The position numbers were made by a program, and so were the translations under genes. Shown here one piece after another: positions 40,880 through 62,397 of a stretch of 64,000 nt of DNA. The DNA is taken from positions 9,064 through 73,063 of the forward strand of contig JAJRQY010000125.1 in the NCBI GenBank assembly GCA_024280015.1, given 5' to 3'. This DNA comes from Actinomycetes bacterium. GTDB taxonomy: Bacteria > Actinomycetota > Acidimicrobiia > Acidimicrobiales > SZUA-35. Under the pieces are notes generated by a model. The model made no database searches, was not told the origin of the DNA, and saw nothing but the letters and a program-made list of their open reading frames with translations. Numbering within the stretch: the stretch's first letter is position 1; the number at the start of each line of letters is the position of its first letter.

Positions 40880-43768
40880 ATGATCAGCAGCAATGAGGTG
40901 GAGTCAATTCTGCAGTCTGACTTCGGTGTCGAAGCGACCTCGGTCCGACAGCTTGAGGGGGAATATGACGAGAACTTTCTCGTCACGTCGGCCACAGGCG
41001 AACAGAACCTGTTCAAGCGGTGCCGCCTGGTGAGCGATCCGTCGTACCTGGACATGCAAGACGCCGTACTCCTTCACCTTGAGGCTTGTGGCGTTGACGC
41101 CCCGCGGCATGTGCAGACCCGCGTCGTCAATGACCGGACGATCCGCCTACTTTCATGGGTCGAAGGCGACGTTTGGGCTGAGGCTGGCGGGGCTGGACCT
41201 CCAACGAGTGAGCAACTGCAATCACTGGGACAGACCGTGGCGGTGACCGACAAGGCGCTGGCCAGCTTCACCCACCCCGCACTGGGTCGTCACGAGCCAT
41301 GGAACCTACTCCAAGCAGGCCAGCTGCTTCCCGTCACCAACAGGTGGGCAGCGCAAGTGCTCGATGGTGCTAGCACTCTGATCAGGGCCCTGGGAGATCT
41401 GCCCCAACAAGCGATCCACAACGATGCAAACGAGAACAACATCGTGCTCGGGTCCAATGGCTCCCTCACCCTGATCGACTACGGCGATCTCGTCAGTGGG
41501 CCTCGAATTGTCGGCCTCGGCGTGGCTGTGGCTTATTCCATGTTCGGCCACCTCGACCCTCTCCGAGCCGCCTGCGAGGTCGTGGCCGGGTATCACCATG
41601 AGGTTCCCTTGACCCCCGACGAGTTGAGTCTTCTGGATGGAGTCGTTCGACTGCGTCTGGCCTTGAGCATGGCCAATGCCGAACATTCATTGACGGCGAA
41701 CCCGGACAACGCTGCCTACCTCGCCACAAGCCAGCCCGCCGTCTCGGCCTTGGTCAACTTGCTGGATGAGATCGAGCCTGACCTCGCCACTGCTTCGTAT
41801 CGTCAATGCTGTGGCTACCTGCCAATTGCCACACAGCGAAACATCGACTCCTACTTCGCCTCCGCCGAATTTCGACCGGCCCCGATCGTTGAATTGGATC
41901 TGGCGGCCGCCCCAATTCTTGACTGGAGTAGCGATGCTGGTGACAGTACTCCGCTCCCCGCCGATGGGATAGCCATTGGTCGTTGGCGTGAACATCGGTC
42001 GGTGTATACCAGCAATGACTTTCTTACGCCCTTTGGCGATCGTCGCACCCTCCACATGGGGATTGACGTATTCGCCCCCGCAGGGACTGTGGTGGCCTCA
42101 CCTCTGGACGGCATCGTTGTTGCCACCGAAGTCCGGAATAGCCCCGGTGATTATGGCGGCGTCATTCTCCTGGAGTTTGCTGCTTCAGACGGCACACCGT
42201 TCTGGCTCTTGCTCGGACACCTCAGTCACCGAAGCGCTGACGCAGTATCACCTGGCCTCCGGGTCAAGGCTGGCAAATCAATTGCCGTGATCGGCGCTCG
42301 CGAGGAGAATGGGGGTTGGGATCCCCACGTGCATGTCCAGCTCTTCACCAGTCTTCTTGGCAAGCAGACTGATCTTGATGGCGTCGCCAGGGCCAGCCAG
42401 GCTGCTGTTTGGTCCTCAATTTCACCCAACCCTGCCCCCTTGCTGGTTGGGGTTCTCCATGACGCGGTCGCCGCCCCAGCTTCACTGGACGACGCGGCCA
42501 TCATTGCGCTCCGTCGCAGCAAGCTCTCCTCCGCTCTGTCCACCAGTTACCAACGGCCACTTCATATGGTCCGCGGCGACGGATCTCACCTGGTTGATGC
42601 CGACGGGAAGCGTTGGCTTGACCTGGTCAACAATGTGGCCCACGTCGGTCATGAACACCCCCATGTTGTTGGAGCGTTGGCGACTCAGTCCCAGCTACTC
42701 AATACCAACACTCGGTACCTGCATTCCAATATCGTGGAATATGCCGAGCGGCTTTCTGCGCGGTTCCCCGACCCCTTATCGGTGGTGATGCTCACCAATT
42801 CGGGTAGTGAGGCCCTCGACCTTGCGCTCCGCTTGGCTCGTACCGCCACCGGTCGTTCCGGGACCTTGGTCATGGACTGGGCTTACCATGGCAATCTCAC
42901 CTCGCTAATTGCGTTGAGTCCGTACAAGTTCAACCGCCCCGGCGGCTCGGGTCGCGATGAGTTGGTCCGGATCTGCGAACTGCCAGACCCCTACCGGGGC
43001 AGCCACGGAGCGAATGGTGGCGTCTACGCCGCTGATGTTGCCGTCCAAGCTACCTCACTGGCCGCCACCTCGAATCCGGCGGCGGCCTTTTTGCACGAAT
43101 CGATTTCGGGCTGCGGGGGCCAGATCGAACTCGCTCCCGGATACCTCGCTGCGGCCTACCAACACGCCCGCTCTGCGGGGGCGCTCTGCATTGCGGATGA
43201 GGTTCAATGCGGAATGGGCCGGGTTGGCGGAGCTTGGTCGGCCTTTGAGGATCATGGTGTAGTGCCTGACATTGTCACCATTGGCAAACCAATCGGCAAT
43301 GGGCATCCCATGGGAGCGGTCATCACAACACCCCAAGTCGCCAGAGCCTTCCGAAATGGGATGGAGTACTTCAACACCTTTGGTGGCAACCCAGTTTCGT
43401 GTGCTGTTGGACTCTCGGTATTGGACGTCATTCGAGACGAGCGACTACAGGCAAACGCCGATCTGGTTGGCCAGCACTTGGTAGCCGGACTTGGTGAGTT
43501 GGCGCGTCGATATGAGGCCATTGGAGATGTGCGTGGCCGCGGCCTGTTCCTTGGGGTTGATCTCATCAGTGATCAGGAGTTGAGAACCCCTGATCCTGGC
43601 CTTGCGGCCCTGGTGGTCGAGGGCCTTCTTCAGCATGGGATTTTGATCTCCAGCGATGGTCCAGCGAACAATGTGCTCAAAATCAAGCCTCCGCTCGTAT
43701 TTACCGCGAGCGAGGCCGACCGGGTACTTGAGGCTCTTGATGTCGTGCTCAACTCTGTCGCTGCTTAG
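40880..43768 (+). CDS. APH-like phosphotransferase + M23-like domain + class III aminotransferase fusion (hydroxylysine kinase / phospho-lyase type)
   Basis: Kinase: AIHNDANENN..IDYGD. M23: HMGID...GHLS...PHVH. PLP domain: DLVNNVAHVGH, IADEVQCG, TIGKPIGNG, FNTFGGNP. Confidence 0.88.
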   Translation: MISSNEVESILQSDFGVEATSVRQLEGEYDENFLVTSATGEQNLFKRCRLVSDPSYLDMQDAVLLHLEACGVDAPRHVQTRVVNDRTIRLLSWVEGDVWAEAGGAGPPTSEQLQSLGQTVAVTDKALASFTHPALGRHEPWNLLQAGQLLPVTNRWAAQVLDGASTLIRALGDLPQQAIHNDANENNIVLGSNGSLTLIDYGDLVSGPRIVGLGVAVAYSMFGHLDPLRAACEVVAGYHHEVPLTPDELSLLDGVVRLRLALSMANAEHSLTANPDNAAYLATSQPAVSALVNLLDEIEPDLATASYRQCCGYLPIATQRNIDSYFASAEFRPAPIVELDLAAAPILDWSSDAGDSTPLPADGIAIGRWREHRSVYTSNDFLTPFGDRRTLHMGIDVFAPAGTVVASPLDGIVVATEVRNSPGDYGGVILLEFAASDGTPFWLLLGHLSHRSADAVSPGLRVKAGKSIAVIGAREENGGWDPHVHVQLFTSLLGKQTDLDGVARASQAAVWSSISPNPAPLLVGVLHDAVAAPASLDDAAIIALRRSKLSSALSTSYQRPLHMVRGDGSHLVDADGKRWLDLVNNVAHVGHEHPHVVGALATQSQLLNTNTRYLHSNIVEYAERLSARFPDPLSVVMLTNSGSEALDLALRLARTATGRSGTLVMDWAYHGNLTSLIALSPYKFNRPGGSGRDELVRICELPDPYRGSHGANGGVYAADVAVQATSLAATSNPAAAFLHESISGCGGQIELAPGYLAAAYQHARSAGALCIADEVQCGMGRVGGAWSAFEDHGVVPDIVTIGKPIGNGHPMGAVITTPQVARAFRNGMEYFNTFGGNPVSCAVGLSVLDVIRDERLQANADLVGQHLVAGLGELARRYEAIGDVRGRGLFLGVDLISDQELRTPDPGLAALVVEGLLQHGILISSDGPANNVLKIKPPLVFTASEADRVLEALDVVLNSVAA

Positions 43769-53516: not shown

Positions 53517-53552
53517 GTTATGGCAGTGTATAGATAAATAGTGAGTTCGCAA

Positions 53553-53565
53553 CTCGATTATCGAG
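53553..53565. promoter_or_regulatory. PcaR/PobR-type IclR operator between iclR and hpaD
   Basis: Perfect palindrome CTCGAT-T-ATCGAG. Its core CGATAATCG matches the PcaR/PcaU box (GTTCGATAATCGCAC) as recalled. Confidence 0.62.
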
Positions 53566-53597
53566 CATCTCTCGAACGTCAATTGACCGGAGGGGTC

Positions 53598-54458
53598 ATG
53601 GGACAACTCGTCACCGCCGCAAAGATCACACATGTGCCGTCGATGTTCATCTCAGAGATGGACGGGCCGCACCAAGGTTGTCGTCAACCGGCCATCGACG
53701 GCTTGCGTGAGATCGGGCGCAGGGCTCGCGAGGATGGAGCCGACACCTTCGTGGTGCTCGACACCCACTGGTTGGTGAACAGCGGCTATCACATCAACGC
53801 CAATCCGGTCCACGCCGGGTGCTACACGTCCAACGAGTTCCCTCAATTCATACGCGAGATCGAATTCTCTCATCAGGGTGCAACCGAACTTGGCCACGCC
53901 ATAGCAGCGGAAGCAACCGAACATGGTGTGCTCACGCGGGCCCATGACGACGTCCCGTCACTGGGGCTCGAATACGGAACACTCGTCCCGATGAAGTACC
54001 TGAACGGAAATGACTGGCCACAACAACTACCGGTGCTTCCAATTGCTGGTTGGCTCCACGACGCCACGATGGAGGAGTCTCGCACCGTGGGTGAGGCAAT
54101 CCGTTCTGCCATTGACGCCAGTGACCGCAATGTGTGCTTGCTGGCATCGGGATCAATGTCGCATCGGATCTGGAGCAATGACAGCGTGGCTGATGGCCTC
54201 TTCGAAATCTCCCGACCGTTCAACGAACTGGTCGATCACCTCATGATCGATCTTCTCATCGAAGGCAGAACTTCGGAGTTTGTTGCCGCCTTACCCGACT
54301 ATGCCCAACACTGCAGTGGAGAGGGCGGGATGCACGACACCGCCATGTTGCTCGGTGCCCTTGGATGGGACAGCTACGGCCAAGGTGTAGAGGTTGTGAC
54401 TGATTGGTTCCCCTCCTCCGGTACCGGGCAATGCAACCTGCTGTTTCCCGTTCACTAA
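53598..54458 (+). CDS. hpaD: 3,4-dihydroxyphenylacetate (homoprotocatechuate) 2,3-dioxygenase, LigB-fold
   Basis: AAKITHVPSM, DTHWLVNS.YH, YTSNE.P.FI, LEYGTLVPM, ASGSMSHR, GEGGMHDT.MLLG and FPSSGTGQ closely follow E. coli HpaD/HpcB. GGAGGGG RBS. Confidence 0.9.
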   Translation: MGQLVTAAKITHVPSMFISEMDGPHQGCRQPAIDGLREIGRRAREDGADTFVVLDTHWLVNSGYHINANPVHAGCYTSNEFPQFIREIEFSHQGATELGHAIAAEATEHGVLTRAHDDVPSLGLEYGTLVPMKYLNGNDWPQQLPVLPIAGWLHDATMEESRTVGEAIRSAIDASDRNVCLLASGSMSHRIWSNDSVADGLFEISRPFNELVDHLMIDLLIEGRTSEFVAALPDYAQHCSGEGGMHDTAMLLGALGWDSYGQGVEVVTDWFPSSGTGQCNLLFPVH

Positions 54459-55831: not shown

Positions 55832-56386
55832 ATGATTGTTCTTGTTGGCGGCCTCATCGGTGCTGGCAAGTCCAGCGTCGCTCAACGCATTGCTGAGCGT
55901 TTGGACTATGTCTACTTTGATCTCGACGAAATAAAGAAAGAGGTTTACGGCCGCGATCCAGCGAATGCACGCAAGCTAGTTGAGGGCGTACCTCCGGACA
56001 TCACGACACGAGCCGAGCTTTACCGAGTAGCGGTAGCGCAAGTAACAACACTGCTCAAGGCTTCTCCAAATATCGTGTTTGATGACACCCTTCATTTCCG
56101 ACGGTTTCGCCAGTACCTCTATGAGGAGATGACCAAGCTCGGCCAAGACTTTGTCCCAATCTGGGTACGGGCCGACGAGGAGATCATTCTGGAACGGCTG
56201 CGGGCGAAGCCTCGTGAGAATCACATCCTGTCTGATCCGATTCCGCTGCACGAACAGATGCTGAAGGACTTTGAGGAGTTTCAGGTGCCGCTGCTGATGT
56301 GCCCGAACAACGGCTTACTGGAGGAGACTGTCGATGCCTTGTTCGTGCTCATCGGGCGGGTCAAATCAATGCATTGGGAATCATGA
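55832..56386 (+). CDS. P-loop kinase (AAA_33 / gluconokinase / PNK-kinase-like)
   Basis: GLIGAGKSS Walker A, DLDEIK, VFDDT and lid ERLRAKPR. Confidence 0.8.
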   Translation: MIVLVGGLIGAGKSSVAQRIAERLDYVYFDLDEIKKEVYGRDPANARKLVEGVPPDITTRAELYRVAVAQVTTLLKASPNIVFDDTLHFRRFRQYLYEEMTKLGQDFVPIWVRADEEIILERLRAKPRENHILSDPIPLHEQMLKDFEEFQVPLLMCPNNGLLEETVDALFVLIGRVKSMHWES

Positions 56387-56438
56387 GTAAACCCGTCTCC
56401 CGTTTTGCTGGCTTGACCGTTGCTGTTAGACGAGCCGT

Positions 56439-58754
56439 ATGAAGCCAAGTCCGGATGACGACAACTACCTCGAGTATTGGGCCAGACAGGCTAAGGATCG
56501 CATTGATTGGCGGCGTGAATTTCTACAGGTTCTCGATTGGCAGCCCCCGTACAACGAGTGGTTTGTTGGTGGCAAACTAAACGTCAGCGAGAACTGCCTC
56601 GATCGCCACATTGTTGCCGGTGCCGGTGACCGACTGGCAATACATTGGGTGGGGGCGAACGGCGAGAGCAGGCAGATCACCTATCGCCAACTATCCGAGG
56701 AAGTGAACCGACTGGCCAACGCGCTACGGGCTCGTGGCATCGAACGTGGTGATCGTGTTGCCATCTTTTTGCCGCGTGTTCCGGAACGAACCGCGGCAAT
56801 GTTGGCCTGCGCTCGCGTTGGTGCGGTCCACAGTGTTGTCTTTGCCGGTCTATCGTCTGACGCCCTGGCTGACCGGCTTAACGATGCCACCGCCACCGCG
56901 CTCATCACTGCAAATGGCGGCTGGCTCGATGGAAGCCATGTGGCGTTCAAGCGGCGATGTGACGAGGCGCTGGAGGCCGGCACCTCCGTGCAGACGGTGA
57001 TTGTCGTTGATCGTGACGGCAGCGCTGTTGACATGTGTGCGGACCGAGATGTCTGGTACCACGACTGCATTTCTGACGCATCTCCTGTTTGTCCAGCTGA
57101 TGAGATCGACTCCGAGGAGGTTCTGTACCTGCTCTACACCTCCGGTGTTACCGATCGGCCGAAGGGAATCATGCATACCACCGGCGGCTACATCACCCAG
57201 GTCGCCACCACGATGAGCGAGATCTTCGCCATGAATCCGGAGTGCGACCTGTTCTGGTGTGGTATCGATACTGCATGGGCGGCCGGACACTCCTACGGTG
57301 TCTACGGACCGCTCCTTTGTGGGGTCTCGTCCTTGCTCTACGAAGGACCTGCCGCTGGGCCAGGCGACGACTCGATACTCAGACTGCTGGCCGAACACTC
57401 CGTAAGTCATGCCTATGTCTCACCGGCGGTTGTACGCATGTGGATGTCGGTGGGCACGAGGGACACCTCCACTTGGGATTTGTCGGCTCTGAGGAACATC
57501 GTTACCTTCGGCGACACACTCCATCTGGATGAGCGAGTATGGCTTGCACGGAACATGGGTGGAGGTTCCCTGTCGGTTAAGAACACGTGGTGGCAATGCG
57601 AAAGCGGTGCGATCATGGCGGCCAGCGCTCCTGGCCAGGAGTCAGGCGTAACCATGCAACCGATCTCTGGTGTAGCACTGGATGTCCTTGACATCGCTGG
57701 TCATCCCGTCCACGGCGTGGCCGGTGCTCTGGCATCGCCCCGGCCGTGGCCTGCAATGCTCCGCGGAGTATGGGACCAGCCCCAGCGTTACCGGTCCGAT
57801 TACTGGACCAGCAGTTGCGATCACTTCATCACGGGAGACTATGCACGGTCGAGTCCTGAAGGTGAGATCACCTTGCTTGGCCGGATGGGGGATCTTGTGC
57901 CAATGGCCGCCGGTCCGCTCTCACCGGTGGAGATCGAGGATGCGCTTGACCTGCTTCCTACCGTTTCAGAATCGGTGGTCGTCTCGGTGCCACGAGAAGG
58001 GCAAGCTGACCAGGCGCTCATGGCGTTCGTTGTGGTCGCAGATGACACTGAAGCGTCTGATGAGCTCGGTGGCCGACTGGCCGACCAGATCGAGCGTGAG
58101 ATCGGGGCCCGTGCCAGGCCAGCCTCGATAGCATTCGCCCCACAACTGCCTCGTAGCGGAGACGGCAAGCTGATGCGACGCCTTCTTCGCGATGTGGCTC
58201 TTGGTCGCGAGCTTGGCGACACAACGACGCTGCCGGAGTCGTCATTGATGGATGAGATACGAGAGCGGGCGGCCTACCCCGAGAACTGGTGTTGGAATGG
58301 AGCCCCGATCCAGCCGGGGCCGGTCGTGCTCGTCGACCTGGACGGCACGATCGCTGACGCCGAGGAACGCATGCGCGGCATCGAGAAGGACCGTGAGAAC
58401 TGGCTGGACTACATGGTGGGCGCTGGCGAAGACGGACTGATCGTCGAGGTCGCTCGCTTGGTCCAACTGCTGACCAGCGATGTCGCTGTTGTCATGCTGA
58501 GTGCTCGCCCAATCAGCATCCTGGAGGAGACTCGCGAATGGCTAACGCTGCACTCGGTGCGGTGGGACTTGATGATCCTGCGGGGCACGACCAGTATCGA
58601 TCGGCCGCGCCACTTCAAGAAGCACCGAACGCGAGAGCTGAAGGAACGCAACTTTGAACCAGTGCTGGCATTGGACGATGACCGCCGCAATGTTGAAATG
58701 TACCATTCAGAGGGTGTTCCCTGTCTCTACGTACACTCCGGTATTCATTCTTGA
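56439..58754 (+). CDS. Degenerate acetyl-CoA-synthetase-like adenylating enzyme fused to a C-terminal PNKP-type HAD phosphatase
   Basis: ACS N-terminus (WFVGGKLNVSENCLDRH), YTSGVTDRPKG, GHSY.VYGPL, TWWQCESG and GKLMRRLLR. In frame after that come VLVDLDGTIAD (HAD I), LSARP (II), FKK (III) and ALDDD (IV). Confidence 0.85.
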   Translation: MKPSPDDDNYLEYWARQAKDRIDWRREFLQVLDWQPPYNEWFVGGKLNVSENCLDRHIVAGAGDRLAIHWVGANGESRQITYRQLSEEVNRLANALRARGIERGDRVAIFLPRVPERTAAMLACARVGAVHSVVFAGLSSDALADRLNDATATALITANGGWLDGSHVAFKRRCDEALEAGTSVQTVIVVDRDGSAVDMCADRDVWYHDCISDASPVCPADEIDSEEVLYLLYTSGVTDRPKGIMHTTGGYITQVATTMSEIFAMNPECDLFWCGIDTAWAAGHSYGVYGPLLCGVSSLLYEGPAAGPGDDSILRLLAEHSVSHAYVSPAVVRMWMSVGTRDTSTWDLSALRNIVTFGDTLHLDERVWLARNMGGGSLSVKNTWWQCESGAIMAASAPGQESGVTMQPISGVALDVLDIAGHPVHGVAGALASPRPWPAMLRGVWDQPQRYRSDYWTSSCDHFITGDYARSSPEGEITLLGRMGDLVPMAAGPLSPVEIEDALDLLPTVSESVVVSVPREGQADQALMAFVVVADDTEASDELGGRLADQIEREIGARARPASIAFAPQLPRSGDGKLMRRLLRDVALGRELGDTTTLPESSLMDEIRERAAYPENWCWNGAPIQPGPVVLVDLDGTIADAEERMRGIEKDRENWLDYMVGAGEDGLIVEVARLVQLLTSDVAVVMLSARPISILEETREWLTLHSVRWDLMILRGTTSIDRPRHFKKHRTRELKERNFEPVLALDDDRRNVEMYHSEGVPCLYVHSGIHS

Positions 58755-59215
58755 GGACGAGCCCGAGTGAGTCGAAAGGCATTGGTTTGTTCGGCGACCA
58801 GGGTGATGAAATCGCTTCGATCTTCAGCGCCAAGCTTGACACCAGCCAGTTCGACTGGCATCTCTGTGGTTCGGATCCATTGGTCAAACAGAGTTGTTAG
58901 CTCCTGGCCGGAGACTTCTTCTGACAGGGACTCAAAGTCTGCCGTTGTCACTGACTGTCCCGAGAAGCGTTGTACCCAGGTCTGCAGAATCTCGAAGAAC
59001 AAATCATCGCCTACCTCGACCCGCAGAGCGTGGAGCATCAGGGCACCGCGTTGGTACACGTGTATACCAAACAGGTCATTGGTTTCTGGCTTATGGACCT
59101 CGGCTTCCAGCGCTGGGCCGTAGGTAACGGTTGACCGGATCAGCCGGTTGCTGAGTCGATCATGGGCCTGGTTTCGCACCCGTTCGGTAGATTGACCGAG
59201 GTCAGAATCTAAGGC
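58745..59215 (-). pseudogene. C-terminal remnant of an M1 family aminopeptidase
   Basis: DLFGIHVYQRGALMLHALRVEVGDDLFFEILQTW...TTADF...LFDQW is the M1 C-terminal segment containing the catalytic Tyr. GAMEN and HExxH are absent, and the frame is closed upstream by the stop of the previous gene at 59216-59218. Confidence 0.75.
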
Positions 59216-61480
59216 CTACGGCGAGGTCGTGACTGTTGCCAAACGTGATGCTCCAGGGTTGCCATTGCCATCTATGGCTCGCACCTCGATCTGATACGTG
59301 GTGCCTGGCTCTAGATTGCGAACTACGTACCAGGAATCGTTGTCCGTGGCCTGTAACTGGCCATTCACAAGAATCTCGTGGTTTGCGGCACCAGCGACCT
59401 TGGCGTAGTTGATGACCACCTTGCGTCGCTCGGTCCGGGTGACATTCACGAAGGCTGGTGCCGGCAACTGGCCGACACCGCCACCATCTTCGATGGTCAC
59501 GCTCCGGTAACCGGTCCTCCAGGACTTATTTCCGGCCGCATCTCGCGCCCGGAAGTAGTAGCGGTATCCAGTGTTGGGTTGCAGGTCGGTGTCTGAGTAG
59601 TTGATCGACTGAGTTTCAGCCAGGAAGCTAAACGCCCCGCCGTTAGTGGAGCGATAGATCTCGTAGGCAACCACTCCGACATTGTCGGTTGAAGCGTTCC
59701 AACTGAGCTGCACCGTGGTCTGGTTGACAGTGGCCTGGTGCTGGGTGGGAACAGTCGGTCGTTCGGTGTCAGGAACGGGAGGTTGCTGCCCGTCTGCCCC
59801 GAGGACAACCACCTCGGCCATTGTCAAGAAAGAGACCCCAGATTGGGCAATTCTTACGTAGCGACCGCTGGTGTTCGGATTGACGAAGGACACTCTCGCG
59901 CGGGCACCGGGGAGCATGTAGGTCGATACACCGGGTTGATTCTTCACCACGTTTGGATCTGATGAAGTAAATGGAGAATCGGAGACAAAGACAAATACGT
60001 TGCGCAGTCGTTCCGGGCAGCAATCGGATCGGTTGTAGATAGCAATCTCGGAGATGTTCTGAGAGCTTCCGAGATCTGCTTGCCACCACGGGTTGTTCTG
60101 TTGAAGGGTCGAAGACACCGAGAGGTTGGTGAATGTTCCTTCGATCGAGCCGTCAACTGCCTTCGATGCCCCCACCGTTGGCCAGTAGTTTGAGCTCTGA
60201 CTCACGACGCCTTCCCGAGCCAGGTTTGTGGACTCTCGTTCACACAGCCTGGTGAATCGTCCGACCTTTCTTCCTCCGGATGCGGTGATGTCGCCTCCAA
60301 TCCAAAGACAACCATTGGAGTCTGCTTTCAGCGCCCAAACTCCAGCGGCACCGCTGGTTTGGGTCACGAAGCTGTCAATTCGTTGCCCGGTATTGGCGTT
60401 GTAAGCGGCTACGTGACTGATGCCGTCGAGGTTGCCCTGGCCGATAGTTCGGTGCTCGACTCGGCAGTGGCATGACGCGTAGATGACGTCACCTGACCGC
60501 TCGAGTGCTTGATAGTCGCCGCCGTTGATATTGCTCCCGGTCGTGTGCTGGAGTAGTAGACGCTGAGTCGATCGTTCAAGAACCTGGAGCGAGTGGTTCG
60601 AGCCAGCAACGAAGATCTTGTTGCTGGTGACAATGACGTCGTGTTGGTAGCTCACAACGTGGTTGGCGACAAACGGTTGGACCCCAGTACGGACTGCCCC
60701 GTTTGAGGTATTGATAGCGGCGAGATTGGCTGTGCCCGGGGAGCCGTTCACCGAGGTGAAGTATCCTGTTAGATAGAGAAATCCTTCGTCGGGGTCCAGG
60801 CCAGCGCCCCAAACAGCCCCACCCGTGACATCGGCGACAAACTGGGAGTCGGGAATGCCGCTGCCCAACGCGAACTTCCCGATCGATGCTGTGCGAGTTC
60901 GACTGGAGTTGTCAGAGCGACTCACATGGCTGAACTTTCCAACAGCGTAGAGGTGATTGGCCCCAAGTTCTAGGTCATAGACAACGGCGGGACGTTGCGT
61001 CCACGGGCGTTCGACGAATCCCTTCCAGCTCGTGTCAACGCGACCCGTCGCCGGATCGAGTGCGACAAGCCCACTCGTGTTCGGGAGCCCATCAGCATTG
61101 GTGAATTCTCCACCGACTAGAAGTCTTGTTCCGTCTGGTGATGCTTGCAGGGCGTAGACGGACCCCTCAAGATTCGGCCGAAATGAGCTATCCCAGACGC
61201 CGGTGTCTACATCGAATGCCGCCAAGAACCGTTGGGATACGGTCTGTGCACCATTGTCGACGGTCAGGAATTTGCCGCCAACATAGATCTTGTTGCCGAT
61301 CTGCTCAATGTCCCAAACATGGTTGCGAACTTGTGGGGTGACTGAGGCCGGATCAAGACCGTCGACGCCCCAAGCCATTGGCAGCGGCGCCGCCGCTTCA
61401 GCAGGGCTTGACGAAAGCAGCGCGGCGATGACGGCAACGACGACGAGGATCAGACCTCGTCGATTCTTTGGGTGACTCAT
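59216..61480 (-). CDS. Secreted protein: beta-propeller + F-type lectin (fucolectin/F5/8C-like) + two FN3 domains
   Basis: Signal peptide, propeller repeats (KIYVGGKF, RLLVGGEFT), NLAREG..SQSS...AVDG...NPWWQADLG...YNRSDCCPERL, and FN3 LSWNASTDNVGV..YEIYR...L.PNTGYRY. AGAGGA RBS before ATG 61480. Confidence 0.85.
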   Translation of the reverse strand: MSHPKNRRGLILVVVAVIAALLSSSPAEAAAPLPMAWGVDGLDPASVTPQVRNHVWDIEQIGNKIYVGGKFLTVDNGAQTVSQRFLAAFDVDTGVWDSSFRPNLEGSVYALQASPDGTRLLVGGEFTNADGLPNTSGLVALDPATGRVDTSWKGFVERPWTQRPAVVYDLELGANHLYAVGKFSHVSRSDNSSRTRTASIGKFALGSGIPDSQFVADVTGGAVWGAGLDPDEGFLYLTGYFTSVNGSPGTANLAAINTSNGAVRTGVQPFVANHVVSYQHDVIVTSNKIFVAGSNHSLQVLERSTQRLLLQHTTGSNINGGDYQALERSGDVIYASCHCRVEHRTIGQGNLDGISHVAAYNANTGQRIDSFVTQTSGAAGVWALKADSNGCLWIGGDITASGGRKVGRFTRLCERESTNLAREGVVSQSSNYWPTVGASKAVDGSIEGTFTNLSVSSTLQQNNPWWQADLGSSQNISEIAIYNRSDCCPERLRNVFVFVSDSPFTSSDPNVVKNQPGVSTYMLPGARARVSFVNPNTSGRYVRIAQSGVSFLTMAEVVVLGADGQQPPVPDTERPTVPTQHQATVNQTTVQLSWNASTDNVGVVAYEIYRSTNGGAFSFLAETQSINYSDTDLQPNTGYRYYFRARDAAGNKSWRTGYRSVTIEDGGGVGQLPAPAFVNVTRTERRKVVINYAKVAGAANHEILVNGQLQATDNDSWYVVRNLEPGTTYQIEVRAIDGNGNPGASRLATVTTSP

Positions 61481-61608
61481 GTAAACATCCTCTGAGAAAC
61501 AACTAGTCACGTAGAGTGACATACAACTACTGTGGGTGCAAGAGGACATCTATCCCGGTTTGCCGGGTTTGGTCATGCCTTGCCGGCGACCAGATTTTCC
61601 GCCCCAGT

Positions 61609-62397
61609 TCAAGTCGTGATGTGCTGAGCGAATGCGGAACCCGTTTGGAAATCGTCCTCTGTGAATAGGTCGATACCGCACTCAAGCCGCTCAAACCAGG
61701 TCAAGAACTCGTCGATTACCTCTGGTCCTTTGAACGGTGCTCCGTGCTGTGGAACAATCCACTCAGGCTCAAGTTGCCGGATCATCTGGGCCCAGAAACG
61801 ACACGCCCGGTTCGATGTCATGTACCGCCGATGAAAGTCGATCATTGATCCCACGTGGGCACCAAAATTCGTCACGGGCATCGAGACATTGCCTGGATCA
61901 ACAGAGGAGCCAATATCACCGGAGAACAGAACGTTCGCGACCGGGTCGTAGATGTTCATGTTTCCCACGGAGTGCAAGAAGTGGGCCGGCAGGGCAACGA
62001 GTGACGATCGACCGAATGCAATAGTGCCACCGGAGTCGGGAACGACCATGATGCGTTCTGGCGAGTAGCTCCCTGGGGCAAAGAAGTGTGGCAGGAATCT
62101 GGCCCACATCGAAGGAATGACGACCCGACACGATGTACCAACAAGCCACTTACTCACCGACGCGACGATGTCCGGATCTTGATGTGAGGCAATCACGAAG
62201 TCGAGATCTTTCACCGTCGTGTGTCTGCCAGCGTGGACGTAGAGCCGAGAGTACGTCAGATTGCCACCGGGATCTATAATCGCCGAACTGTCGCCGTCGA
62301 GGATGAGAAATTGGTTGCTCTGGATCCCTTCGCCCTCAACAAGATCTCCGAAACTGAGGCACTTGTGGCCCTCATTCTCATAGATGACTGTAGACAT
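61609..62397 (-). CDS. Oxygen-binding di-iron protein (ODP)-like MBL-fold protein, stand-alone flavodiiron N-terminal domain
   Basis: IQSNQFLI, IIDPGG, ASHQDPD, PAHFLHS.GN, LFSGDIG, FHRRYM and IVPQHG. There is no flavodoxin domain. Confidence 0.8.
   Translation of the reverse strand: MSTVIYENEGHKCLSFGDLVEGEGIQSNQFLILDGDSSAIIDPGGNLTYSRLYVHAGRHTTVKDLDFVIASHQDPDIVASVSKWLVGTSCRVVIPSMWARFLPHFFAPGSYSPERIMVVPDSGGTIAFGRSSLVALPAHFLHSVGNMNIYDPVANVLFSGDIGSSVDPGNVSMPVTNFGAHVGSMIDFHRRYMTSNRACRFWAQMIRQLEPEWIVPQHGAPFKGPEVIDEFLTWFERLECGIDLFTEDDFQTGSAFAQHITT

Follow-up and report, generated by a model that had tools for sequence, protein, structure and literature searches.

We analysed a window of 64,000 nt from Actinomycetes bacterium (assembly GCA_024280015.1, contig JAJRQY010000125.1; coordinates without a prefix are positions in this window), which contains a gene encoding a diverged paralogue of acetyl-CoA synthetase (ACS; enzyme Acs, gene acs) fused to a PNKP-type HAD phosphatase. 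In the map of open reading frames (ORFs) and their translations, this gene belongs to a plus-strand row of four, consisting of a LigB-type extradiol dioxygenase (53541-54458, +; HpaD equivalog, 397 bits), a P450 (54404-55786, +), an AAA_33 P-loop kinase of 184 aa (55832-56386, +; Pfam AAA_33 with E 3.9e-15, P-loop GLIGAGKSS at 55850-55876) and the ACS-HAD fusion, a single ORF of 771 aa (56439-58754, +). The intergenic distances are 45 bp between P450 and kinase and 52 bp between kinase and fusion. A scan of these two gaps for promoters and terminators detected nothing; short gaps free of such signals are weak evidence, compatible with co-transcription of P450, kinase and fusion.

A preliminary description of this DNA had listed the same ORFs and gaps, which the ORF map reproduced, and had read the ACS-HAD frame as uninterrupted. 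This frame is open in independent assemblies as well as in eight relatives described below, and in contigs assembled from four sequencing runs, which belong to two studies, no indel occurs at the ACS-HAD junction or the kinase-fusion boundary. The fusion is therefore no artefact of assembly. Its Pfam domains are ACAS_N (residues 9-53), AMP-binding (59-436), AMP-binding_C (498-577) and HAD_PNKP (629-768). The ACS-like half, a member of the ANL enzymes, spans residues 1-610 (56439-58268, +), and its divergence is apparent from NCBIfam scores, from the tree and from the loss of invariant sites; the PNKP-type HAD half spans residues 611-771 (58269-58751, +), with YPENWCW at its N-terminus.

Relatives and origin of the fusion

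Searching 5.8 billion proteins, we recovered eight full-length relatives of 778-792 aa which carry all four domains and are 48-58% identical to the window protein by BLAST (45-56% over the ACS half). Matches beyond these eight were ordinary 650-aa Acs of Acidimicrobiales, with 44-48% identity. Counts out of nine proteins given below refer to the window protein together with its eight relatives, and the nine relative loci are labelled L001-L008 and L122. A tree of 79 Acs sequences grouped the nine ACS halves into a single clade (SH-aLRT 100), nested among the Acs of Acidimicrobiia; its stem measures 0.64 and its tips 0.25-1.02, the median tip in the tree being 0.16. A canonical Acs, 69% identical to an Acidimicrobiales Acs, is encoded on another contig (C39) of the window's genome, and the fusion is therefore an extra paralogue. 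Neither the fusion nor any HAD was found in the two same-genus genomes, and the AAA_33 kinase was missing from the 40 nearest genomes; fusion and kinase are both accessory genes. The fusion clade is small, old and selected. Literature searches for an Acs-HAD fusion, and for a system combining a dikinase, a metallo-beta-lactamase and Acs, gave nothing relevant.

The HAD half alone matched a large standalone family of about 160-170 aa (2165 cluster representatives at E<1e-3), among which the fusion is a rare exception. Of 401 same-class genomes, 145 have the HAD, and only the window's genome has it in the fused, diverged form. In 8 of 10 closely inspected class genomes, an Acs gene of 652-680 aa ends at the start of the HAD gene. 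A similar picture was obtained from 80 named unfused HAD loci, nearly all of them from metagenome-assembled genomes of Acidimicrobiia: in 45 of the 76 loci with enough flanking sequence an Acs C-terminus lies directly upstream of the HAD, and about ten more have one gene in between. Where the distance could be measured, the Acs stop and the HAD start overlapped by 4 bp in 13 of 41 pairs. The HAD-paired Acs proteins are canonical, with V310, T311, V386 and W414 (numbering of Salmonella Acs) intact and the SGHR motif kept in 6 of 8. Fused and unfused HADs share about 41% identity, the N-terminal PENW-W segment included. The pair is part of a wider conserved block composed of nuoN, a Methyltransf_28 gene, acs, HAD and a YajQ-like gene on the opposite strand (YajQ by eye only). 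Clustering of neighbours around the 80 unfused loci returned just this conserved synteny, including nuoN, Methyltransf_28, the YajQ-like gene and a GNAT gene, and no functional clue.

The GNAT acetyltransferase is located between acs and HAD in two loci (L034:3078-3890 and L055:3543-3992). Enzymes of this kind inactivate Acs by acetylating its catalytic lysine, and this arrangement hints that the HAD may belong to Acs regulation.

Several long frames in class genomes at first resembled independent Acs-HAD fusions. All of them were out-of-frame or stop-separated high-GC artefacts, and the fusion therefore has a single origin. It arose from the class-wide acs-HAD gene pair. The unfused pair is its direct evolutionary source, with the same HAD family and the same Acs clade. 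The two arrangements differ in that the unfused partners are separate genes, encode a canonical Acs and have no ODP (an oxygen-binding di-iron protein, see below) or kinase gene nearby, whereas the window's protein is fused, diverged and linked to ODP.

The balance of constraint between the two parts has changed as well. The HAD half is more conserved than the ACS half in all 36 fusion pairs (69.3 vs 56.5% identity), and in unfused pairs it is Acs that is better conserved (72.1 vs 65.5%), with the HAD exceeding Acs in just 25 of 200. After fusion, the evolutionary rate of the ACS half rose to 2-6 times that of canonical Acs. An estimate of dN/dS had been proposed as a check on neutral decay of the ACS part; in the closest pairs, to which the values apply because dS was saturated for most pairs, omega amounted to 0.08-0.19 for the ACS half, which is not neutral, and to 0.04-0.14 for the HAD half. 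Both halves are under purifying selection and neither is decaying. The HAD is now the better-conserved half, and constraint has moved away from the ACS half.

That the fusion is due to chance or artefact, or that a decaying Acs pseudogene reads into the HAD, could be suspected on the grounds that acs and HAD are separate in most relatives and that one lost stop codon suffices to join them. However, all nine proteins keep a frame of 770-790 aa, independent assemblies agree, omega stays at 0.08-0.19, the adenylation motifs are kept and the linkage to ODP is conserved. We attach next to no probability to this explanation, and for practical purposes it is refuted.

Residues of the ACS and HAD halves

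Residues of the ACS half are numbered as in Salmonella Acs, using a HMMER alignment plus a separate multiple alignment. Canonical-invariant sites are the 272 alignment columns for which 69 canonical Acs of Acidimicrobiia show an invariance of 97% or more; of these, 142 are retained by eight or all of the nine fusion proteins. The ACS half is recognisable by its match to PDB Acs (E 1e-126), and the Foldseek matches of the full-length model include Acs. On both NCBIfam models of acetate-CoA ligase it scores under the cut-off (NF001208, 632.6 against 657; TIGR02188, 604.4 against 724.95). The best-scoring PDB chain was an R584E mutant of Acs, because the window protein itself has E at position 584. 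The HMMER alignment to Salmonella Acs gave R191L, R194S, SGHR replaced by AAGP, R584E, V310A/T311A, V386F and the P-loop TSGVTDRPKG. Every residue call that the preliminary description had made by eye holds in the multiple alignment against Acs; E417, D500, R515 and K609, listed there as the adenylation residues, were all recovered.

T264, S265, G266, P271, K272, G273, W413, W414, E417, D500 and K609 are kept in all nine fusion proteins, and R515 in eight. The first six of these lie in the A3 or P-loop motif YTSGVTDRPKG (Salmonella 263-273; 57135-57167, +), whose core T-S-G..P-K-G is retained in 9/9 while positions 267, 269 and 270 vary in the fusion clade and partly in canonical Acs too. W413, W414 and E417 belong to WWQCESG (57588-57608, +). 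The A10 motif SGDGKLMRR (58155-58181, +) contains the catalytic, acetylatable lysine K577, equivalent to Salmonella K609; the residues before it are changed uniformly in the clade (R606 to D/G/S and S607 to D). The walls of the acyl pocket are different. The segment WAAGH (W309-H313; 57276-57290, +) carries V310A and T311A, both positions being invariant in the 69 canonical Acs and occupied by A/S and A/P, respectively, in all nine fusion proteins. In TFGDT (S385-P389; 57504-57518, +), V386 is replaced by F, as in seven of the nine; all canonical Acs have V. At positions 310, 311, 386 and 414 the acetate pocket of the window protein thus reads A-A-F-W, the canonical one V-T-V-W. The altered pocket and divergent P-loop reported earlier were therefore found again, and the pocket differs from that of all canonical relatives. 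By alignment, the acetate pocket has been remodelled with the adenylation residues kept.

Changes in the fusion clade are of two kinds. Uniform switches include M141R, G164S, F166L, A305I, G308A, V310A, T311A, G384V/A, V386F, D480Q, Y496F, G501Y, T529P, V537D/N, S607D and others. Scrambled stretches comprise positions 391-398, 423-437, 580-582 and the A8 loop (523-526). The former point to new constraint and the latter to released constraint. In the window protein the degenerate A8 loop reads MAAGP (Salmonella V522-R526; 57903-57917, +) in place of the canonical SGHR, in which S523, G524 and H525 are invariant and R526 nearly so among the 69 canonical Acs. Across the clade the loops are AAGP, PGGP, AGGP, VDGL, SGEL, VAGV, PGGP, GRRI and ATGR, all of them unlike SGHR.

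The loss of residues serving CoA binding and thioester formation, as put forward in the preliminary description, is supported in part. R191 binds CoA's 5'-diphosphate as well as its 3'-phosphate, R584 also binds the 3'-phosphate, and R526 stabilises the conformation in which the thioester is formed (PMC10455477). Canonical Acidimicrobiia Acs have E/S/A/T/G/Q at position 194 and A/S/G at position 584. As they have neither R194 nor R584, these two positions were ruled out as evidence of CoA-blindness. R191 is retained in five of the nine fusion proteins, so none of R191, R194 and R584 is diagnostic. The other part of the claim stands, in that the A8 loop is lost in a way that sets the clade apart from all canonical Acs. 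Judging from the alignments, the diagnostic signals are the scrambling of the A8 loop, uniform substitutions in the surroundings of F163-F166 and A357-A360, and the replacement of A by E at position 584, present in 7/9.

These data also bear on another explanation, in which the protein would still function as an acyl-CoA synthetase, now tuned to some other short-chain acid (for example propionate, glycolate, lactate or 3-hydroxypropionate). The HAD would be an inherited accessory activity, dephosphorylating for instance a phosphorylated precursor, PPi or a nucleotide product, and neither kinase nor ODP would take part. This would account for the full-length Acs fold, for the retention of W414 and all adenylation residues, for the many tunnel and pocket changes that are uniform switches and not decay, and for the presence of R191 in 5/9 and of G524 in 4/9. 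According to PMC10455477, single mutations of the A8 loop or CoA site, such as those of R526 or R584, are mild in Salmonella Acs, R526A costing about 2-fold in kcat (Reger et al., cited therein). Some relatives' fusion genes also lie near acetate, propionate or glyoxylate genes, namely ack-pta (L007), methylcitrate genes (L005/L006) and isocitrate lyase with acyl-CoA dehydrogenases (L001). On the other hand, the A8 positions S523, G524, H525, R526 and T529 are unconstrained in the clade and invariant in the 69 canonical Acs, the ACS half is the less conserved half in every fusion pair, its scores fall under both NCBIfam cut-offs, and E584 in seven of the nine proteins places a negative charge at the site of the CoA 3'-phosphate. 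We consider a retuned synthetase possible, though rather unlikely.

Compared with Acs of Salmonella enterica (1PG4/2P2F; ANL), the ACS half shares three Pfam domains and the fold, together with the P-loop core, W414, E417, D500, R515 and K609; it differs by scores below the NCBIfam cut-offs, the A-A-F-W pocket, the absence of SGHR, changes at 130 of the 272 class-invariant sites and the C-terminal HAD. Some ANL enzymes are CoA-independent, among them fatty acyl-AMP ligases (FAAL) and stand-alone adenylating enzymes; they keep adenylation and have the second half-reaction disabled or redirected. In FAALs an insertion blocks domain rotation, and the acyl group is handed to a carrier protein. The window protein is like FAAL in concept; unlike in FAAL, the change concerns the A8 loop and the pocket, and no carrier-protein gene occurs in the 10 loci (no member of the PP-binding carrier family was present, whether in the genes called for L001-L008 and L122 or in the window ORFs that were scanned).

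The preliminary description had assigned the C-terminal part to PNKP-type HAD phosphatases with all four motifs, and this was borne out by both sequence and fold. The motifs are VDLDGT (motif I; 58332-58349, +), LSARP (motif II; 58497-58511, +), the lysine in HFKKHRT (motif III; 58611-58631, +) and DDD (motif IV; 58671-58691, +). Pfam HAD_PNKP (PF25109) gave 39.6 bits (cut-off 27.6). The only PDB sequence matches below E 0.1 were Pnkp1 of the Pnkp1-Rnl-Hen1 complex (4xrp, E 6.5e-5) and T4 Pnkp (1ltq). In Foldseek, the AlphaFold2 (AF2) model of the HAD (pLDDT 90.4) was led by Pnkp1 4xrp (E 2e-8) and the T4 Pnkp 3'-phosphatase 5uj0 (TM 0.79), followed by class B acid phosphatases and lipins. Residues D23, D25, G26, R34, R80, K117 and D137 (domain numbering) are invariant in 22 family members. 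In functional terms, the family keeps the Asp residues that act as nucleophile and acid, Ser of motif II and the Arg next to it, Lys of motif III, Asp of motif IV and the counterpart of T4 R176. In the alignment to T4 Pnkp, the equivalents of D165, D167 and R176 are kept, LSAR/LSGR matches Pnkp1, and a realignment with one gap suggests that R80 corresponds to T4 R213. The natural reading is that the HAD half would be an active phosphomonoesterase. In DxDGT, S-[AG]-R, K, DD and the R176 equivalent it is like the T4 Pnkp 3'-phosphatase and Pnkp1 (4xrp, 5uj0, 1ltq); it differs from both by being attached to an ANL enzyme and not to a polynucleotide kinase.

Genomic partners of the fusion

The gene that accompanies the fusion is not the kinase. 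At 61609-62397 (-) the window encodes a di-iron protein of metallo-beta-lactamase fold belonging to the ODP family (Pfam ODP, PF19583, 222 bits), which matches the crystallised oxygen-binding di-iron protein 6qrq with E 1.3e-58 (also 6qnm). Orthologues of it, 59-68% identical to the window's protein, adjoin the fusion gene in all nine relative loci (L001-L008, L122). The AAA_33 kinase was found in none of these. A conserved module of kinase and fusion, as proposed in the preliminary description, is thus not supported; the constant partner of the fusion is ODP. Nor does the hpaD-P450 pair, which had been suggested as possibly cotranscribed with the module, travel with the fusion, as it is common only to the closest kinase loci. 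The neighbour gene is a close homologue of ODP of Treponema denticola and Thermotoga maritima (6QRQ, 6QNM), a documented O2 sensor (PMC7666581). The known partner of ODP is a chemoreceptor (PMC7666581); here, ODP adjoins an ACS-HAD gene and, in several relatives, a split PEP-synthase-like kinase. In L002, L005/L006 and L008, ODP is the last gene of an operon divergent from the fusion gene, following a PEP-utilizers/Rph_4th gene (~576 aa) and a PPDK_N gene (~357 aa; L002:6252-9868, L005:3218-6865, L008:2572-6235).

Such neighbours would suit an explanation in which the ACS half is a non-catalytic or slow sensor that binds ligand and ATP and gates the HAD, forming a signalling unit with ODP; in several relatives this unit would act on, or be opposed by, the split PEP-synthase-type phosphohistidine kinase. 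The presence of a documented sensor protein (PMC7666581) in every fusion locus is in line with this, as are the PEP-utilizers and PPDK_N genes in the ODP operon (L002, L005/L006, L008), the stronger constraint on the HAD half and the release of half of the canonical-invariant ACS sites. Yet a pure sensor has no need of K609, E417, D500 and the P-loop core, all of which are kept; the pocket has switched uniformly, as for a new substrate, and omega of the ACS half is well below 1. We therefore regard a mere sensor as unlikely.

Several further observations concern the neighbourhood of the fusion and ODP. In the window, the interval between the two holds a 777-aa protein with F5/8-type-C (NedA-like) and fibronectin-III domains (59216-61549, -), inserted there, and an ORF of 144 aa (58745-59179, -), probably a gene fragment, since its match to the Peptidase_M1 catalytic domain is confined to the final ~80 positions. 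Just past the fusion stop, at 58797/58798, there is a strain difference, with 244 extra bases in one run and contigs of another run breaking there. Beside the fusion gene of relative P0006 (L004:1-9829) lies a phenylphosphate-synthase/carboxylase-like set (PEP-utilizers, PPDK_N, CBS, two UbiD and a small HAD), accompanied by two XylR-type sigma-54 activators. The only PPDK_N/PEP-utilizers pair of the window's genome is on contig C12, in a gene cluster for aromatic meta-cleavage, and resembles the phenylphosphate-synthase type of L004 more closely; the similarly sized ORFs at 43.8-47.8 kb of the window were considered as such a pair and turned out to be a FAD monooxygenase and a hydrolase. A UPF0261 gene occurs in L003 and L007. 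A second ODP paralogue (~43-45% identity) is located outside the window (C49:8833-9675), among small ORFs that look regulatory. Elsewhere in the window (40880-43768, +), a 962-aa protein has the unusual combination of an APH-type phosphotransferase, Peptidase_M23 and a class-III aminotransferase, which we take to resemble kinase plus phospho-lyase pairs.

The kinase has a partner of its own. Its orthologues in Acidimicrobiales are 51-81% identical, and in nine of nine loci of four groups (L113-L121, 57-81% identity) the kinase gene is followed by an overlapping or nearly abutting Metallophos gene of ~360-380 aa. This unit of AAA_33 kinase and calcineurin-type phosphoesterase is found, for example, at L113:6011-7668, L115:6330-7984, L117:8001-9714 and L118:514-2144. 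The best model match of the Metallophos protein is TIGR04075, the bacterial Pnkp phosphatase region (E 5e-25), followed by ApaH and PrpE. Among PDB entries it matches 4j6o best (E 3e-16), which bears the title 'Metallophosphoesterase' and is presumably the phosphatase domain of Clostridium thermocellum Pnkp. From these matches, the unit looks like a split Pnkp without the ligase domain. L113 and L114 share with the window the order IclR-LigB-P450-kinase (64-80% protein identity), and nucleotide similarity between L113 and the window amounts to 70% over 3.4 kb, ending ~25 nt before the kinase stop. Neither a remnant nor an orthologue of the Metallophos gene was found in the window's genome, where the fusion is the single gene with a T4-Pnkp-type phosphatase domain and occupies the usual Metallophos slot beside the kinase. 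Thus the HAD-bearing fusion probably replaced the phosphoesterase of C. thermocellum Pnkp type in this genome only. If one type of phosphatase replaced the other, kinase and HAD would be a working pair in this organism. The pairing suggested in the preliminary description is therefore plausible locally, while conservation across the fusion clade is lacking.

The boundary itself (56383-56442) shows the kinase stop codon within ATGA, the overlap signal used by the orthologous loci for the Metallophos start. It is followed by a 19-codon ORF which ends in a second ATGA holding the fusion start codon.

The interpretation originally offered was that kinase, adenylase and HAD act sequentially on one substrate as a conserved Pnkp-like module. 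The adjacency on one strand, the 45- and 52-bp gaps without a terminator-like site, the T4-Pnkp-like HAD and the Pnkp-like normal partner of the kinase (C. thermocellum type) all speak in its favour, and C. thermocellum Pnkp also carries an adenylyltransferase domain. From genes alone, bacterial Pnkp (C. thermocellum type, kinase-metallophosphoesterase-adenylyltransferase, TIGR04075) and the window both have three kinds of activity in a row. The window, however, contains neither a metallophosphoesterase nor a ligase-type nucleotidyltransferase, its adenylating domain is of the ANL type, and its kinase had no match to TIGR04075 at E <= 0.01. ANL enzymes adenylate carboxylates and not 5'-phosphates, the kinase has no specific polynucleotide-kinase signal, and the sequential module conflicts with the absence of the kinase from the nine relative loci and from the vicinity of the ancestral acs-HAD pair in 80 loci. 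Neither Hen1 nor an RNA ligase was present in the Pfam lists of the fetched loci, although no search was aimed at them. We find a sequential module very unlikely.

Function and significance of the ACS-HAD protein

The model that we tentatively favour, at somewhat less than even confidence, combines a selected fusion of a CoA-impaired adenylase with a HAD phosphatase, a partnership with ODP and a local pairing with the kinase. The sequences show that separate acs and HAD genes fused in one lineage, after which the ACS half diverged fast. The HAD half would be a Mg-dependent phosphomonoesterase of the T4-Pnkp 3'-phosphatase type and would probably define the role of the protein. The ACS half could still bind ATP and form, or at least bind, the acyl-adenylate of a small carboxylate other than acetate, and its CoA thioester half-reaction would be weaker or take another course, given that constraint has been lifted from the A8 loop, which builds the pantetheine tunnel. 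The fusion would work with the adjacent ODP, which probably provides an input from O2 or iron. The HAD would, in this genome alone, probably serve as the phosphatase partner of the kinase, the T4 type replacing the C. thermocellum Pnkp type. Nucleotides or nucleic-acid ends carrying a 3'-phosphate, or else CoA-like nucleotides, would probably make up its substrate class.

Several observations weigh against this model. G524 persists in four of the nine fusion proteins, and the mild effect of R526A means that loss of the A8 loop is no proof that CoA ligation is lost, so the protein may retain residual CoA ligation. The full-length AF2 model (pLDDT 79) lies ~3 A from the Cryptococcus Acs bound to an acyl-AMP analogue and ~12 A from the CoA-bound Salmonella Acs, a conformation that gives a weak hint of an adenylation-type resting state. 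The pairing of kinase and fusion is known from one genome and could possibly reflect a rearrangement breakpoint. In addition, the kinase is not specifically similar to polynucleotide kinases; a gluconokinase is its best PDB match (E 1e-3), and its similarity to CoaE is faint. Co-location with ODP is no evidence of physical interaction. Finally, acs is absent from the nuoN block in some genomes that have the HAD, and the acs-HAD adjacency may in part be inherited synteny.

A more specific and quite improbable variant would have the phosphatase attack CoA or acyl-CoA at the 3'-phosphate (or else pAp). In the fused clade, an oxygen-gated (ODP) adenylase would activate a new small acid and use an acceptor of non-CoA or dephospho-CoA type, and in this genome the kinase would re-phosphorylate the acceptor or product. 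If true, this would connect ANL adenylating enzymes with 3'-phosphonucleotide phosphatases, a link so far unrecognised, and it would describe a kinase/adenylase/phosphatase cycle on a nucleotide cofactor or nucleic-acid end.

The fused clade offers a clean natural case of neofunctionalisation, in which constraint passed from the ACS to the HAD half and the thioester loop was released with the adenylation chemistry kept. The probable exchange of Metallophos for HAD in place provides a testable example of replacement by an unrelated enzyme and a way towards the substrate of the kinase. The strict linkage of ODP suggests that it has a partner outside chemotaxis, and the PEP-utilizers/PPDK_N/ODP operon links a phosphohistidine-type dikinase to a homologue of an O2 sensor. 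Acs is among the best-studied metabolic enzymes, and Acidimicrobiia are abundant in soil, water and wastewater. The partnership of acs and HAD is class-wide and often translationally coupled, and no description of it was found in the literature searched; it implies that in this class acetate activation or the handling of CoA involves an accessory step not recognised before.

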